29,157 bases of DNA from Thermoplasmata archaeon (GTDB lineage Archaea > Thermoplasmatota > Thermoplasmata > RBG-16-68-12 > JAJISG01): positions 1 through 29,157 of the forward strand of contig JBHIBW010000001.1 in assembly GCA_046759265.1 (NCBI GenBank), read 5' to 3'. The notes under the pieces were generated by a model, which did no database searches, was not told the origin of the DNA, and was given only the letters and a program-made list of their open reading frames with translations. The first letter of the stretch is position 1. The number at the start of each line of letters is the position of its first letter. Positions 8,495-20,312 of the stretch are shown piece after piece. The position numbers were made by a program, and so were the translations under genes.

Positions 8495-10543
8495 ATGTTT
8501 CACATCGTCCTCATCGCCCTCGGGGTAGCGGGCCTCACCCTGGTCTTTGCCGCACTCCTGGTCCGGGCCATTCTGCGCCAGCCGGAGGGGTCAGACCGGA
8601 TGCGCGAGATCGCCGGATTCATCCAGGTTGGGGCCACCGTCTTCCTGCGGCGCGAGCTCCGGGCTCTGTTCATCTTCACCGTAATCCTGGTCTTGGTTCT
8701 CACTTTCGTCATCTCGCCTGGAACCGTCCACTGGGAGCTCGGGTTGGCCTTCGCCCTGGGGACTGCGGCCTCGTTCGGCGCGGGGTACCTGGGCATGTGG
8801 ATTGCCACCCGGGCCAACGTGCGCACGGCCAATCTCGTCTCGGGAAGCTTCACCCGAGCCATGCGGACGGCCTTCTTTGGCGGAGCCGTCATGGGCTCCG
8901 TCTCGGTGGCCCTGGGCCTCATCGGCATCACCAGCCTCTTCGCCGCCTTCCCGGCGGAGCCGGAGGTCTGGCTGGCCTACGCCTTCGGGGCCAGTTCCGT
9001 GGCCCTCTTCCTTCGCGTCGGCGGAGGCATCTTCACAAAGAGTGCCGACGTGGGAGCGGACCTCGTCGGCAAGGTCGAAGCGGGCATTCCCGAGGACGAC
9101 CCGCGGAACCCTGCCGTGATCGCGGACAACGTCGGGGACAACGTCGGGGACGTCGCCGGGATGGGGTCCGACCTCTACGAGTCCTACGTCTCCGCCATCG
9201 CGGCGACCATGGTCCTCGCCCTGGCCCCTGCCCTCAACCTTGGAGTGGACTACGCCCTCTTCCCCCTCCTCATGGGGGCCGTGGGTCTCCTCGCCTCGAT
9301 GGCAGGCATCCTCGCCGTACGACCTCGGCGCAGCGCCGAGGGATACGAGCAGGAGGCGAAGGCGGCGCGGTCGGCCTTGAACGTCGGCGTCTACGTGAGC
9401 ACGGGCATCATGATCGTCGTGGGCTACTTTGCCGCCCAGTTCCTCCTGGGCGCGGACGGGCTCGCCCCCTTCCTCGCCATGGTGACGGGGCTCGTGGGCG
9501 GGTTCTTGATCGGCCTCTCGACCCAGTACTTCACCTCGGAATACGGTCCGGTCCGGGGAATCGCAGGGGCGAGCGAGAGCGGAGCGGGCATCAACGTCAT
9601 GGAGGGGATGGCTGTGGGGTTCCTGAGCACCATCCCGCCCATCCTGGTCGTGGCTGGGGCGACCTTCGTGGCCTTCGCCTTTGCGGGATTGTACGGCATC
9701 GCCGTCGCGGCCGTGGGGATGCTGGTCACGCTCGCCATGCTCCTCTCGACGGACGCCTATGGACCCATCGCGGACAACGCCGCGGGCATCGCCGAGATGA
9801 GCGGCCTGGGACCGGAGGCCCGAGAACGGGCCGAAGCCCTGGACTCCGTGGGGAACACCACGGCGGCCATCGGGAAGGGTTTCGCGATCGCCTCGGCCGC
9901 CCTCGCGGCGCTGGCCTGGATTGCCACCTTCCTGGTGGTCGCGGACGTGAGCGTGGTCCCGATCCTCAGCTTCCCATTGACCTTCACGGAGGTCCGCGTC
10001 GTCATTGGCCTCCTGTCCGGGGGCTTGCTCGCCTTCGTCTTCTCGGCGCTGACCCTCCGCGCGGTCAGCTCCGGGGCCTTCGAAGTCGTTCGGGAGGTTC
10101 GACGGCAATTTCGCGACACACCGGGCCTACGGGAGGGGAAGGCAAAGCCCGACTACGGCGCCACCATCTCCCTCGTGACGCGGAAGGCCCTCCGTGCCAT
10201 GTTCGTCCCCGGGCTGCTGGTCCTCCTCGTCCCTCTGGCGGTCGGGTTTGGCCTCGGACCTGAAGCCCTGGCCGGCCTGCTCCTCGGCGCCCTCTTCGTG
10301 GGCTTCCTCCTCGCGGTCATGATGGCCAACTCCGGCGGCGCATGGGACAACGCGAAGAAGCTGATCGAGTCCGGGCTGCACGGAGGGAAGGGCGGGGAGG
10401 CCCACAAGGCCGCGGTCATCGGAGACACGGTCGGCGACCCCTTCAAAGACACCTCCGGCCCGTCGCTGAACATCCTCATCAAGCTCGTGGGGAAGGTGGC
10501 GGTCATCTTCGCCCCCTTGTTTGCACTGATCGCCGTCGTGTGA
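8495..10543 (+). CDS. hppA: Membrane-bound ion-translocating pyrophosphatase, K+-dependent, probably Na+-pumping
   Basis: GGGIFTKSADVGADLVGKVEAGIPEDDPRNPAVIADNVGDNVGDVAGMGSDLYES, GPIADNAAGIAEM, GNTTAAIGKGFAI and GDTVGDPFKDTSGPSLNILIK motifs. Confidence 0.97.
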   Translation: MFHIVLIALGVAGLTLVFAALLVRAILRQPEGSDRMREIAGFIQVGATVFLRRELRALFIFTVILVLVLTFVISPGTVHWELGLAFALGTAASFGAGYLGMWIATRANVRTANLVSGSFTRAMRTAFFGGAVMGSVSVALGLIGITSLFAAFPAEPEVWLAYAFGASSVALFLRVGGGIFTKSADVGADLVGKVEAGIPEDDPRNPAVIADNVGDNVGDVAGMGSDLYESYVSAIAATMVLALAPALNLGVDYALFPLLMGAVGLLASMAGILAVRPRRSAEGYEQEAKAARSALNVGVYVSTGIMIVVGYFAAQFLLGADGLAPFLAMVTGLVGGFLIGLSTQYFTSEYGPVRGIAGASESGAGINVMEGMAVGFLSTIPPILVVAGATFVAFAFAGLYGIAVAAVGMLVTLAMLLSTDAYGPIADNAAGIAEMSGLGPEARERAEALDSVGNTTAAIGKGFAIASAALAALAWIATFLVVADVSVVPILSFPLTFTEVRVVIGLLSGGLLAFVFSALTLRAVSSGAFEVVREVRRQFRDTPGLREGKAKPDYGATISLVTRKALRAMFVPGLLVLLVPLAVGFGLGPEALAGLLLGALFVGFLLAVMMANSGGAWDNAKKLIESGLHGGKGGEAHKAAVIGDTVGDPFKDTSGPSLNILIKLVGKVAVIFAPLFALIAVV

Positions 10544-10558
10544 GCGGATTCCACAAGG

Positions 10559-10564
10559 CTTAAG
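10559..10564 (+). promoter_or_regulatory. Possible TATA-like box for the stand-alone 5S rRNA gene
   Basis: CTTAAG ~25-30 nt upstream of the predicted 5S 5' end. Confidence 0.4.
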
Positions 10565-10592
10565 CAGCCGCGTCGGGTAACGAACGCGGAAG

Positions 10593-10813
10593 GGTGTGAC
10601 GGCCATAGCGGCGGGGATACACCCGGTCCCATCCCGAACCCGGAAGTTAAGCCCGCCTGCGTTCCCTCTGGTACTGCGGTGCGCGAGCCCGTGGGAAGGT
10701 TGGCCTCGCAAGGGTCGTGGACCCCTGGTCTAGGCGCGCTAGCCTGGTCACTTCGGTAACCGGGTGAACCGTTGCCGTTGACGGCCAACGGGTCCGCGGA
10801 ACGCTGTCAGCCC
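10593..10813 (+). rRNA. rrf: 5S rRNA with ~96-nt internal insertion (10700-10795); ends approximate
   Basis: GGCCATAGCGGCGGGGATACACCCGGTCCCATCCCGAACCCGGAAGTTAAGCC core and loop E GGTA/GAA. Helix I TGACGGC/GCTGTCA and GAAGGG/CCCTTC closes only at ~10803-10816, about 100 nt later than in a standard 5S. Confidence 0.93.
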
Positions 10814-10817
10814 TTCC

Positions 10818-11147
10818 TCACCCTGCTTCGGCTCCGGCCAGGAGGTCCTCCAGGTTGGCCTCCGTGAGACCCTGCCCCAGGACCCCATCGACCCGGCCTT
10901 GAATGCGCTCGCCCGCAAAGAGAATCAGGGTGGGCACCACCTCGACGCGGTAGGTGTCCCACAACGGGTTGATCTCCTCGGAGAGGTCCACCTCCACCTT
11001 CTTGATCGGGCCCGTGTCCCTCCCGCGAAAGTGGGGGAGAAAGTCGCGGCAGTAGCCGCACCAGACCGCGTGGAAGAGCGCGAGAACCGGTTCCTCCGCC
11101 TCGACGACGGCTTCGCGAAACTCGTCGGGGGTGGTGACCTGCTCCAT
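10818..11147 (-). CDS. Thioredoxin-fold protein (WCGYC)
   Basis: FHAVWCGYCRDF active site and YRVEVVPTLILF cis-Pro loop. Confidence 0.88.
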   Translation of the reverse strand: MEQVTTPDEFREAVVEAEEPVLALFHAVWCGYCRDFLPHFRGRDTGPIKKVEVDLSEEINPLWDTYRVEVVPTLILFAGERIQGRVDGVLGQGLTEANLEDLLAGAEAG

Positions 11148-11247: not shown

Positions 11248-14200
11248 ATGACTGACCTTAGCTCCAGCCAGGCAATGAGGGAGTACCTGGAAGGGCTAAA
11301 CCGGGAGGCGGAGGCGTGCTACAGCCTCGCCCGGCGCGCCCGCGCCCAGGGGATGGACCCGGAACTCAGCGTGGAAGTCCTCGCGGCGGAGGACCTGCCG
11401 AGTCGGGTGGAACGCCTCTTGGAAGCCTATGGCCTGCAAGGGGTTGGGCAACGCATCCGGGAGCTGAGCGCCCACCACGACCGAGAGGAGACGTCGCTCC
11501 TCTTGGCGCGGGAACTGGCGCAGGAGCCGGGGCGGAGCGTGGAGGAGCGCATCGAGCGCGCGATTCGGGCGGGCCTCGCCCTCCTCACCGAGGGCGTGGT
11601 AGTGGCCCCGCTGGAAGGGCTGGGGGGCGTCCAAGTCAAGCGGAACGAGGACGGGACCAACTACCTGGACGTGTTCTACGCCGGTCCGATCCGATCGGCC
11701 GGGGGGACGGCCCAGGCGCTCAGCGTGCTGATTGCCGACGTAGTCCGGCGGGAGCTCGGAATCGGGGCGTATCAGCCGACGAAAGAGGAGGTGGAGCGCC
11801 TCAAAGAGGAGATTCCGCTCTACAAGCGCCTCCAGCACCTGCAGCACACCCCCTCCGGGAACGACATCGAGCTGGTCGTCGGCCATTGCCCCGTCGGCAT
11901 CAACGGCGAAGGCACAGAGGAGGAGGAGATCAGCGGCCATCGGGACCTCCCCCGGGTGGAGACGAATCGTATCCGCGGCGGCGCCTGTCTGGTGATCGCC
12001 GAGGGACTTTGCCTCAAGGCGCCGAAGATTCTCAAACACGTCCGCAATCTCCAGATCGACGGGTGGGACTTCTTGACGCGGTACGTGGAAGAGCGAAAGA
12101 ACGGAGAGGAGGAGGCGGACAAGGAGCCCAGCTTCATTCAGAACATCATCGCGGGCCGACCGGTGCTGGCCCACCCGAGCCGGAAGGGCGGGTTTCGCCT
12201 CCGGTACGGCCGGACCCGGGCGACCGGACTCGCGGCGCTGGGCGTCCACCCTGCGACCATGCATCTCGTCGACGACTTCGTGGCCGTTGGGACCCAGATC
12301 AAGGTCGAGCGGCCGGGCAAGGCGGGAGCGGTCTCCCCCTGTGAGACCATCGAGGGGCCCCTTGTCCTCCTGAAGGATGGAAGCCTGACCGAGGTGTCAA
12401 CCCTGGAGGAGGCGCGCCGGCTTCGGCCCGACGTCGTGAGCCTGGTGGATCTGGGGGAACTCCTCGTCGCCGTTGGCGAGTTCCTGGAGAACAACCACGC
12501 CCTGCTCCCCGGCGCCTACGGTCTGGACTGGTACCGGACGGAGCTCGAGCTCCACGCCGACCCCTTACCGGAGAACTGGGAACGCCCCGCCTTCGAGGAG
12601 GCCGAGGCCTGGTCCCGCGAGTACGGCGTGCCCATGCACCCCCGTTTTAACCTCTTCTGGCACGAGCTCTCCGTCCAGGATCTGCGTCACCTGCGCGAGG
12701 AACTCGCCAGGCGGGGCCGGGGAGCGAAAGGCCGGCTCGAGATCCCGGCCGATGCGGATCTGCAGGCCCCGCTCGTGGAACTCGGGGCCCTCTTCCGCCG
12801 GGAGGGCGACACCCTCCAGGTCGGGCGCCACGGCCCGGCCCTCCTCCTCGGGTTGGGGCTCAGCATGGTGGGCCACCGGCTTCAGCCCGGAGCGGATGTG
12901 GAGGCGCAAGACCCCCTCGAGTACGTCTCGCGCTTCTCCGGAATCCCCCATCGAGCCCGCGGGCCCACGCGGATAGGGGCGCGCATGGGTCGCCCGGAGA
13001 AGGCACGGCCTCGACTGATGAAGCCCCCGCCTCACGCCCTCTTCCCCCTCGGCGTCCAGGGTGGCCCGCAGCGCCTCCTTGCCAAGGCCCTCGAGAAGGA
13101 GCGAGTCGTGGTGGAGGTCGGGCTTCGGAAGTGCGCGCAGTGCGGTCGGTCTTGGTTCCTCTCCAGGTGCCCCTGCGGCGGCCACACGGTCCCCGGGAGC
13201 CGAACGGTCGAGGAGAGTGTCCCCCTCCGGGAGGTCCACAGCCGGGCCCTCCAGGCGTTGGGCCTCACCCGGATGCCGGGGGTCAAACTCGTCCAAGGCA
13301 TGATCTCGCGGCTGAAGACCCCCGAGGCCTTGGAGAAGGGATTGTTGCGGGCGAAGCATGAGATCCACGTGTTCAAGGATGGCACCTGCCGATTCGACAT
13401 GACGAACCTCCCGCTCACCCACTTTCGACCGGGCGAGGTCGGCCTCTCCGTCCCACGGGCGAGGGAGCTGGGGTACGAAACCGACGTGCTCGGAGAGGTC
13501 CTGGCACGCGAGGACCAGCTCGTCGAGTTGCGGCCCCAGGACTTGGTGGTCTCCACCGACTGTGCGGCCTACCTGGTCCGGGTCGGGCGTTTCGTCGACG
13601 ACCTCCTCGCCCTCGCCTACGGGCTGGAGCCCCACTACGGGTTCGAGGAGACGGGGGATGTCGTCGGTCACCTCGTGATGGGTCTAGCCCCCCACACCTC
13701 GGTGGGCGTCCTCGCTCGGATTGTCGGCCTGACCCCCGCACGAGCGTGCTTCGCCCACCCCTACTTCCATGCCGCCAAGCGCCGGGACGCGGACGGGGAC
13801 GAGGACTCCGTCATCCTCCTTCTCGACGGCCTCCTCAACTTCAGTCGCGGCTTCCTGCCGGAGAAGCGCGGCGGCCTCATGGACGCGCCGCTGGTGCTGA
13901 GCACCCGGATCGATCCCAAGGAAGTGGATCGGGAGGTCCACAACCTGGAGGTCTGTGGGCGCTACCCCCTCGAGTTCTTCGAGGCCGCGGAGAAGGGGCG
14001 GCACCCTCGAGAGGTGGAGAACCTCGTCGACACGGTGGCGGCGCGCGTGGGTTCCGTCTTGCAGTTCGAGGGCTTCGGGTTCACCCATGAGGTGGACCGC
14101 CTGGACGCGGCGCCCTTGCAGACCGCCTACACGGAGGGGGGCATGCTCGCCAAGATTGAGGGGCAGTTGGCTCTGGCAAACCGGATCCGGGCCGTCAACG

Positions 14201-14541
14201 CCGAAGACGTGGTCGCCCGAATCGTGAACCACCACTTTCTCCCCGACCTGATCGGCAACCTACGGGCCTTCACCAGCCAGCGATTCCGATGCACGAAGTG
14301 CGGCGCGAAGTACCGGCGGATGCCCCTCGCCGGATCCTGCCTTCAATGCAAAGGGAAGCTGACGCTGACGGTCCACAAGAGCGGGGTCGTCAAGTATCTG
14401 GAGCTCTCGAAGCGTATCTCCGAGGAGTATCAGATTTCTCCGTACCTGCGGCAGCGCATTGGCCTCGTCGAAGAGGCCATTGCATCCATCTTCTCCGACG
14501 AGAGCCGGCAGGTCGTCCAGTTGGAGGATTTCCTCGATTGA
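11248..14541 (+). CDS. polC: DNA polymerase II (PolD) large subunit DP2, intein-free
   Basis: YAGPIRSAGGTAQALSVL, GFRLRYGRTR, IGARMGRPEKA, VFKDGTCRFD, HAAKRRDADGDED, GGLMDAPLVL and FRCTKC..C-x2-C motifs; PIP-like C-terminus QVVQLEDFL. Confidence 0.97.
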   Translation: MTDLSSSQAMREYLEGLNREAEACYSLARRARAQGMDPELSVEVLAAEDLPSRVERLLEAYGLQGVGQRIRELSAHHDREETSLLLARELAQEPGRSVEERIERAIRAGLALLTEGVVVAPLEGLGGVQVKRNEDGTNYLDVFYAGPIRSAGGTAQALSVLIADVVRRELGIGAYQPTKEEVERLKEEIPLYKRLQHLQHTPSGNDIELVVGHCPVGINGEGTEEEEISGHRDLPRVETNRIRGGACLVIAEGLCLKAPKILKHVRNLQIDGWDFLTRYVEERKNGEEEADKEPSFIQNIIAGRPVLAHPSRKGGFRLRYGRTRATGLAALGVHPATMHLVDDFVAVGTQIKVERPGKAGAVSPCETIEGPLVLLKDGSLTEVSTLEEARRLRPDVVSLVDLGELLVAVGEFLENNHALLPGAYGLDWYRTELELHADPLPENWERPAFEEAEAWSREYGVPMHPRFNLFWHELSVQDLRHLREELARRGRGAKGRLEIPADADLQAPLVELGALFRREGDTLQVGRHGPALLLGLGLSMVGHRLQPGADVEAQDPLEYVSRFSGIPHRARGPTRIGARMGRPEKARPRLMKPPPHALFPLGVQGGPQRLLAKALEKERVVVEVGLRKCAQCGRSWFLSRCPCGGHTVPGSRTVEESVPLREVHSRALQALGLTRMPGVKLVQGMISRLKTPEALEKGLLRAKHEIHVFKDGTCRFDMTNLPLTHFRPGEVGLSVPRARELGYETDVLGEVLAREDQLVELRPQDLVVSTDCAAYLVRVGRFVDDLLALAYGLEPHYGFEETGDVVGHLVMGLAPHTSVGVLARIVGLTPARACFAHPYFHAAKRRDADGDEDSVILLLDGLLNFSRGFLPEKRGGLMDAPLVLSTRIDPKEVDREVHNLEVCGRYPLEFFEAAEKGRHPREVENLVDTVAARVGSVLQFEGFGFTHEVDRLDAAPLQTAYTEGGMLAKIEGQLALANRIRAVNAEDVVARIVNHHFLPDLIGNLRAFTSQRFRCTKCGAKYRRMPLAGSCLQCKGKLTLTVHKSGVVKYLELSKRISEEYQISPYLRQRIGLVEEAIASIFSDESRQVVQLEDFLD

Positions 14542-20226: not shown

Positions 20227-20312
20227 GCCGCCGTAGCTCAGCCGGCGAGAGCGACGGTCTTGTAACCCCGCAAGAGAACCGTAGGTCAAGGGTTCGAATC
20301 CCTTCGGCGGCT
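20227..20312 (+). tRNA. tRNA-Thr(UGU) with 12-nt intron at 37/38 (20265-20276)
   Basis: GCCGCCG/CGGCGGC acceptor plus U73, GCTC/GAGC D-stem, ACGGT/ACCGT anticodon stem with CT-TGT-A, AAGGG-TTCGAAT-CCCTT T-arm; 74 nt after splicing. Confidence 0.93.

Follow-up and report, generated by a model that had tools for sequence, protein, structure and literature searches.

The window analysed here, a 29,157-nt contig from a Thermoplasmata archaeon, carries a stand-alone 5S rRNA gene on the forward strand (~10590–10817) that is nearly doubled in length by a structured 98-nt insert. With a probability of roughly 85%, we interpret it as a functional 5S gene with a retained, mostly vertically inherited expansion segment (ES) that is related to the ES of haloarchaea. 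Archaeal expanded 5S rRNAs have been catalogued only in Halococcus, Halalkalicoccus, Halomarina and Halodesulfurarchaeum, the haloarchaeal insert being 108 nt long and located at core positions 104.1–105, next to loop E; the same authors noted that poorly annotated genomes may conceal more (Stepanov & Fox 2021, PMC7812874). Our literature search found no report of an expanded 5S rRNA in Thermoplasmata. The window belongs to a metagenome-assembled genome (MAG) of 280 contigs, which is 86% complete with 6.6% contamination.

The gene matched the Rfam 5S model RF00001 at 84.5 bits (cut-off 38), with helices I–V and loop E present. Posterior probabilities in this alignment (10595–10711) were high throughout the canonical core from helix I to loop E, including helices II–IV (10595–10699, +), and low in the final ~15 columns, which are mismatched because the model was forced to close within the extra sequence and so was pushed onto the insert. 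Direct reading showed that helices I and V can close only across the insert. A first-pass annotation had described the 5S as normal through loop E (GGUA 10670–10673/GAA 10695–10697) and two further helix V pairs (C10668–G10699 and U10669–G10698), and direct reading agreed. After the insert come the 3′ strands of proximal helix V and helix I (10798–10809, +): GUUCC 10661–10665 pairs with GGAAC 10798–10802, and 10597–10603 pairs with 10803–10809 as the helix I core. Pair 74–106 of alignment A1 covaries between G–C and C–G.

By direct reading, the 5′ strand of helix I reaches from 10588 to 10603 (+) and is complementary to 10803–10817. It includes an extension of 5–7 bp, in which GGAAGGG 10588–10594 pairs with CCCUUCC 10811–10817 (or from 10590 and to 10815), and an internal loop of U10595/G10596 against G10810 lies between this extension and the helix I core. 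The ends of the expanded 5S rRNA (10590–10817, +; ~226–228 nt) were inferred by homology from the ends of RNA contigs of L080, a soil relative in family f5 whose 5S sequence is common to four species; L080 positions 966 and 1198 were transferred to window positions 10590 and 10817, with L080 971 corresponding to window 10595. The helix I extension is paired in relatives too, with different letters, and 5 bp of it lie inside the L080 RNA contig ends. Some extra pairing at the helix I terminus also occurs in ES-less families of the class.

A putative TATA-like A/T-rich box, GGCTTAAGCAG (10556–10566, +), was read ~28 nt upstream of the inferred 5′ end, and L080 has TGATATAT at an equal distance from its RNA-supported 5′ end. 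The upstream neighbour is an H+-translocating pyrophosphatase (8495–10543, +; Pfam PF03030, E = 5e-242). Downstream, a thioredoxin gene (10818–11147, −; PF00085) is convergent with the 5S gene and is followed by the DNA polymerase II large subunit, DP2 (11248–14541, +; PF24846, PF24844, PF03833). The window's 5S gene is unlinked to 16S or 23S. At L236, L238, L241 and L242 (families f47 and f68), a common motif, GTTAAACAGGTTGCRTAT, lies upstream of the expanded 5S and suggests linkage to an upstream conserved element there, e.g. the 23S end, unlike the window's gene. Elsewhere in the window, a tRNA gene (20227–20312; 62.6 bits) has an insertion after the anticodon that takes up 14 positions in the Rfam alignment and is presumably an archaeal intron.

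The ES occupies 10700–10797 (+), interrupting helix V on its 3′ side between loop E and the three-way junction (loop A). Two covariance models, R1, built from the ES of the window's order only, and R2, a broader model, matched 10696–10803 at 76.9 and 70.3 bits, respectively. The insert had first been placed at 10700–10795; it is indeed present, and its true span is two bases longer. Its minimum free energy (MFE) was −48.8 kcal/mol (z = −2.8), and none of 200 shuffled sequences folded as well.

Five helices make up the ES: helix a is a short hairpin and helices b–e build a long arm, a layout that covariation supports. Helix a (10702–10716, +) is a 5-bp hairpin (10702–10706 with 10712–10716) with the loop CGCAA, replaced in relatives by GCAA or UUCG tetraloops, and all seven of its model pairs show compensatory changes across families. 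The arm begins with helix b, whose 5′ strand (10717–10724, +) pairs with 10790–10797 and covaries at 9/9 pairs, and continues into helix c (10726–10730, +, with 10783–10787; 90% of cells paired, 5/5 pairs covarying). Helix d opens with a nearly invariant A10732–G10733 and pairs GGCGCG (10733–10738, +) with 10770–10776, leaving U10773 bulged (96% of cells paired; 5/6 covarying). Helix e (10742–10765, +) is the apical arm, capped by cUUCGg (10751–10756); its six basal pairs are 83% paired and four covary, while the length of its apex varies by family. In the modelled fold, helices a and b form a four-way junction with the two halves of helix V.

Conservation is also pronounced in the unpaired parts. 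The 3′ strand of an asymmetric internal loop (10777–10782, +), conserved in alignments A2 and A5 and in the Halococcus alignment, reads GUUGAC in the window, GCUUUAAC or GYUUGAA in relatives and GUUACAAC in Halococcus, and contains the invariant A10781. Nearly invariant ES bases common to Halococcus are A10732, G10733, A10741 and A10781, and A10767 is conserved in 38/40 aligned ES, with G in Halococcus; the four adenines are unpaired and G10733 is paired. Judged by eye, the conserved internal loops fit neither the K-turn nor the loop-E consensus, and we discarded both readings.

An attempt to align the whole gene with MAFFT and fold it with RNAalifold missed the closure of helix V and mixed two helices; in its place we used a structure anchored by hand, together with a covariance model and re-aligned sequences. 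MFE folds of 14 diverse inserts gave one architecture, consisting of helix a, a b–c long-range stem, helix d (GGUACG/CGUGCC) and helix e, with two conserved internal loops. When 58 sequences were re-aligned to R1, 87.3% of cells were paired compared with 77.5% in shuffles, and there were 186 double-change cells compared with 64, a level reached by 0/500 shuffles. In a set of 33 sequences from 12 families, 83.6% of cells were paired (62.5% when shuffled, 27–43% in slid controls), and compensatory changes occurred at 30 of the 33 ES pairs, supporting all five helices. Because both alignments had been fitted to the model, they are biased towards the structure; in an unfitted MAFFT alignment, helices c and d were still 91% paired.

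Together, the covariation and the better-than-shuffled folding bear out the first-pass proposal that the insert is a selected RNA structure rather than junk. Three of the elements proposed at that stage are present and conserved, namely the GCAA-type hairpin (10702–10716), the GGACC/GGUCC stem (10719–10723/10791–10795) and the cUUCGg hairpin (stem 10742–10765). A third hairpin, at 10770–10790, had to be abandoned: its strands are complementary, yet it forms only in the window's own genus. Over 54 relatives, only 54% of its cells were paired, no better than slid controls, against 91% for the conserved alternative that pairs 10733–10738 with 10770–10776 and 10726–10730 with 10783–10787. On the window sequence itself, the homology-based fold had an energy of −45.0 kcal/mol, compared with −33.8 kcal/mol for the earlier fold.

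The first-pass annotation was aware of no Thermoplasmata example and had flagged this for checking; the insert is not a one-off. Homologous inserts of 97–117 nt were found in at least 16 families of Thermoplasmatota, in the window's order, in other orders of its class and in other classes. Within the window's order, all 30 5S loci examined (10 genera, 7 families) were 214–234 nt long. In other families of the class, R1/R2 matched loci in f10 (15/15), f14 (9/10), f21, f28 and f13, and direct reading of 5S loci extended this to f22 and the remainder of f21, as well as to genomes G054 and G056, in which strict search filters had missed the ES. In other classes, R2 matched f47 (9/9), f45, f67 and f68. 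Ordinary 5S genes of ~122 nt were read in 16 families (f8, f9, f11, f12, f15–f20, f23, f24, f26, f27, f29 and f30); cultured members of the Thermoplasmatales and Methanomassiliicoccales are probably among them.

When 185,579 species genomes were scanned with an exact pattern, 57 loci matched, all of them in uncultured MAGs recorded as Thermoplasmata, Methanomassiliicoccales, Methanobacteriota or Euryarchaeota archaeon, with isolate names that point to soil (EA_*, SMAG_*) or to groundwater and sediment (RBG_*). In a pattern scan of 401 genomes of the class, the ES had seemed restricted to the window's order, but exact matching had produced this impression: the covariance models found divergent ES elsewhere. 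R1 and R2 never matched a free-standing ES module, and outside 5S genes they matched only two truncated 5S 3′ halves, L239 (G517:C128:8295–8653) and L235 (G029:C76:1345–2046), both of which extend from loop E across the ES as far as helix I and have no 5′ half. L239 sits 2.5 kb from the intact gene of G517. L235 accounts for a stray R1 match in G029 (27.6 bits) that was considered as a free-standing module and rejected; it resembles the ES of family f3 and may lie on a contaminant contig.

Next, we looked for the ES in RNA. Of the words of the window's own 5S, no RNA run contained more than a 0.19 share; of the sampled ES words of L080, four soil metatranscriptomes contained 100%. RNA contigs from these four runs, which come from two studies, were placed on L080 with 200 nt of flank on either side. 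Run X28 yielded one 229-nt contig with a word depth of ~1850 that covers 966–1190 without mismatch, and in runs X25, X26 and X30 of the second study, ES depth was in the hundreds to thousands. Flank depth was 0 in all four runs, which indicates RNA and not contaminating DNA. The abundant contig spans core, ES and core with the ES at the same depth as the core, and no ES-skipping junction was found in the contigs of the four runs on L080. As a separate observation in run X25 only, one contig (word depth 599) joins L080 1198 to 966, head-to-tail, and contains the whole 233-nt 5S. Such a junction could reflect a circular 5S, or a ligation or assembly artefact; circular 5S has been reported at a low level in Sulfolobus and Halobacterium (PMC3326292).

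The first-pass annotation had named another expressed 5S copy as an outcome to check for, and no normal copy was found in this assembly or in closed relatives. The sole other 5S match in the assembly, on the 2.3-kb contig C198 (L002), comes from a co-assembled strain and is this same locus: C198 repeats the pyrophosphatase, 5S, thioredoxin and DP2 locus at 70–89% identity, indicating that two strains or species were co-assembled in this MAG. Over the 5S and insert, 229/231 bases are identical to the window, compared with 70–83% in the flanks, and the only change within the RNA, C10794U, converts the G10720–C pair to G–U and keeps the pairing. Closed genomes of relatives have only expanded genes, one each in G077 and G168 and two in G036 (CP070767.1), so that the expanded form is their sole 5S, as in the Halococcus type. 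A deviating locus, L123 (G019:C87, family f7), lacks ~12 nt of helix III/loop C, with CCCGUUAACCCGG in place of CCCGGUCCCAUCCCGAACCCGG; its 5S scores only 45 bits and its ES is intact (104.6 bits), so that the locus possibly reflects misassembly or a degenerate copy.

We then compared the ES with that of haloarchaea. Expanded 5S genes (L163 and L164) are present on two plasmids of Halococcus dombrowskii H4, and the ES aligned over its full length to both R1 (30.5 bits, E = 7.5e-8) and R2 (29.7 bits), models that were built without any haloarchaeal sequence. Seventeen control loci with normal 5S scored at most 15 bits. Both alignments start and end at identical core nucleotides, in agreement with the earlier suggestion that the Halococcus insertion site is equivalent: helix a begins 6 nt past the leading A of GAA in loop E (window 10702; H. 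dombrowskii L163 403), and the nucleotides that immediately follow the ES are GGAACG (window) or GGUUCG (Halococcus). The elements also come in a common order, with a GNRA hairpin of the GCAA kind (GCCUCGCAAGAGGGGC in Halococcus, GGCCUCGCAAGGGUC in the window), a long stem, YAGG-NN-CG (CCAGG-NN-CG) and a variable apical arm, then ACCG-NN-CCG, an 8-nt loop ending in AAC, and GGC. Helix d shows covariation between the two groups (GGAGCG/CGCUCC vs GGUACG/CGUGCC). Because of the ~30-bit scores, the identical site and the common motifs, we consider the Thermoplasmatota and Halococcus ES very probably homologous, in place of the independent origin first proposed. The window's gene resembles the Halococcus type in its helix V 3′-strand site, its nearly doubled length and this detectable homology. 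Identity between Halococcus and Thermoplasmata ES is 35–47%, and in the ES tree the Halococcus ES lies on a long branch outside every Thermoplasmatota family; there is thus no sign of recent transfer. The common ancestry could reflect ancient lateral transfer or deep common descent.

To place the ES within the class, a DP2 tree of 61 class genomes was examined. The ES-bearing genomes did not form one clade; five changes were needed, at least three of them forced by well-supported branches (AU test p = 0.0017). This tree represents a single gene, was obtained by a quick search and is unrooted, and the AU test was run after a first tree had been viewed. The ES tree grouped sequences by host family and paired f10 with f28, as in the DP2 tree. 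Old presence with vertical descent and several losses is the simplest reading.

Four other explanations were weighed against a retained, inherited ES. Introns are frequent in archaeal stable-RNA genes, and the window's tRNA at 20227–20312 has one, so the insert might be an excised intervening sequence, leaving a mature 5S of ~125 nt or two fragments; contigs drop rare variants, and a minor processed form is possible. However, the abundant contig of the relatives covers core, ES and core at even depth, and no ES-skipping junction was present in four runs from two studies. The covariation-supported fold leaves no 4-bp helix with 3-nt bulges and therefore no BHB motif, as the first-pass annotation had also noted for the junctions, both of which are used by helices a and b. 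In addition, the whole 5S pool of H. morrhuae was of the long form, according to the account of Luehrsen et al. (1981) given in PMC7812874, and the insert is visible by cryo-EM on native large subunits (PMC7530397). Excision, the outcome that the earlier annotation had set as its own refutation, is accordingly very improbable: in RNA of family f5 relatives the ES is a retained expansion segment and not an intron, a conclusion that follows from the covariation, the exclusively expanded copies in closed genomes and the whole RNA contig. Even harder to credit is a silent or decaying 5S pseudogene alongside a normal 5S used elsewhere. With the MAG only 86% complete, a second gene may be unassembled, but the one other match represents this locus in a co-assembled strain, every 5S copy in the closed relatives is expanded, core and ES are under strong purifying selection, and the relatives' RNA is abundant.

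The remaining two alternatives concern origin. The hosts belong to different phyla, the two groups of ES share only 35–47% identity across a very long Halococcus branch, and the insertion site permits unhindered expansion (Stepanov & Fox, PMC7812874), which would favour its repeated use; the ES might then have arisen independently in Thermoplasmatota, by convergence at one sterically permissive site. We find this distinctly unlikely, given that haloarchaea-free models align the Halococcus ES end to end at ~30 bits, compared with ≤15 bits in the controls, with the same element order, the same junction nucleotides on both sides and a similar length. Somewhat less remote, and still unlikely, is that the patchy spread arose from horizontal movement of a mobile RNA module or of whole 5S genes instead of inheritance with losses. 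The scattered positions of ES-bearing genomes in the DP2 tree (five changes; AU p = 0.0017) fit such movement, transfer among haloarchaeal genera has been proposed (PMC7812874), and the Halococcus link itself needs either transfer or very many losses. On the other hand, the ES group according to host family, in step with the protein tree, model scores drop roughly with host distance, each lineage's 5S core resembles those of its relatives, and the only matches outside 5S genes were the two truncated 3′ halves, with no free-standing module. Vertical inheritance with losses remains our preferred reading of the spread.

How the ES might work can be outlined from its fold and from H. morrhuae. The ~98-nt ES would stay in the mature 5S, branching off helix V on its 3′ side, between loops E and A, and helix a and the internally looped arm b–e would join the helix V halves in the predicted four-way junction. 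In H. morrhuae, cryo-EM revealed a four-way junction and a flexible arm that projects from the insertion site with the 5S core undisturbed (Tirumalai 2020, PMC7530397), and it is for this species only that incorporation of an expanded 5S into the 50S subunit has been demonstrated (PMC7530397). By homology, the Thermoplasmatota arm may project flexibly from the large subunit without disturbing the core. The conserved unpaired adenines and the asymmetric 2 × 6–8 nt loop could provide a docking site for a putative protein or RNA partner; their phylum-wide conservation suggests such a site rather than inert filler. The module would be old in Thermoplasmatota, mostly vertically inherited and lost several times, with the cultured Thermoplasmatales and Methanomassiliicoccales probably among the losing families. 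A bolder proposal, that the ES is an ancient functional module from near the base of the phylum whose invariant unpaired adenines and asymmetric loop bind a dedicated protein or RNA partner at the central protuberance, and that the haloarchaeal ES is a laterally acquired copy, is possible and for now rather doubtful.

If this bolder proposal is true, the haloarchaeal ES would provide a rare instance in which rRNA sequence passed from one archaeal phylum to another. The known Halococcus-type ES gains a new and very broad membership of many uncultured Thermoplasmatota lineages, where large archaeal 5S insertions, so far from four haloarchaeal genera, had been treated as a curiosity. That a prokaryotic rRNA expansion segment can last over phylum-scale time argues for function, and the origin of the Halococcus insert is now testable as lateral transfer versus deep ancestry. 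The numerous natural variants of the ES can inform structural work and the design of engineered 5S tags at this site. Since the Rfam match ends inside the insert and standard tools truncate there, the 5S genes of these lineages are likely to be mis-annotated.

Several known systems resemble the ES in part. Archaeal BHB introns of rRNA and tRNA genes likewise place extra sequence in a stable-RNA gene, whereas the conserved fold of the window's ES has no BHB and the insert is found in the abundant RNA of relatives. Bacterial 5S expansions, such as the helix III inserts of Thermoanaerobacterales (Stepanov & Fox 2021), are also structured and leave the 5S core intact, but they occupy other sites, have unrelated sequences, often occur beside normal copies and are taxonomically narrow. 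The large-subunit ES of eukaryotes and Asgard archaea (Penev 2020, PMC7594248) share the helical accretion on a conserved core, the retention and the variable tips; they reside in 23S/28S rRNA instead of 5S, and no homology is implied. The closest match is the Halococcus type, whose ES has been described as an asymmetric V; it has the same site, a similar length (108 vs 97–117 nt), a short hairpin and a long arm that make a four-way junction, and the expanded form as the sole 5S type in the genome. Compared with it, the apical arm in the window is shorter and unbranched and helix I is extended by 5–7 bp, the hosts are uncultured, non-halophilic Thermoplasmatota of soil, groundwater and sediment, and the ES spans at least 16 families over several classes rather than four genera.
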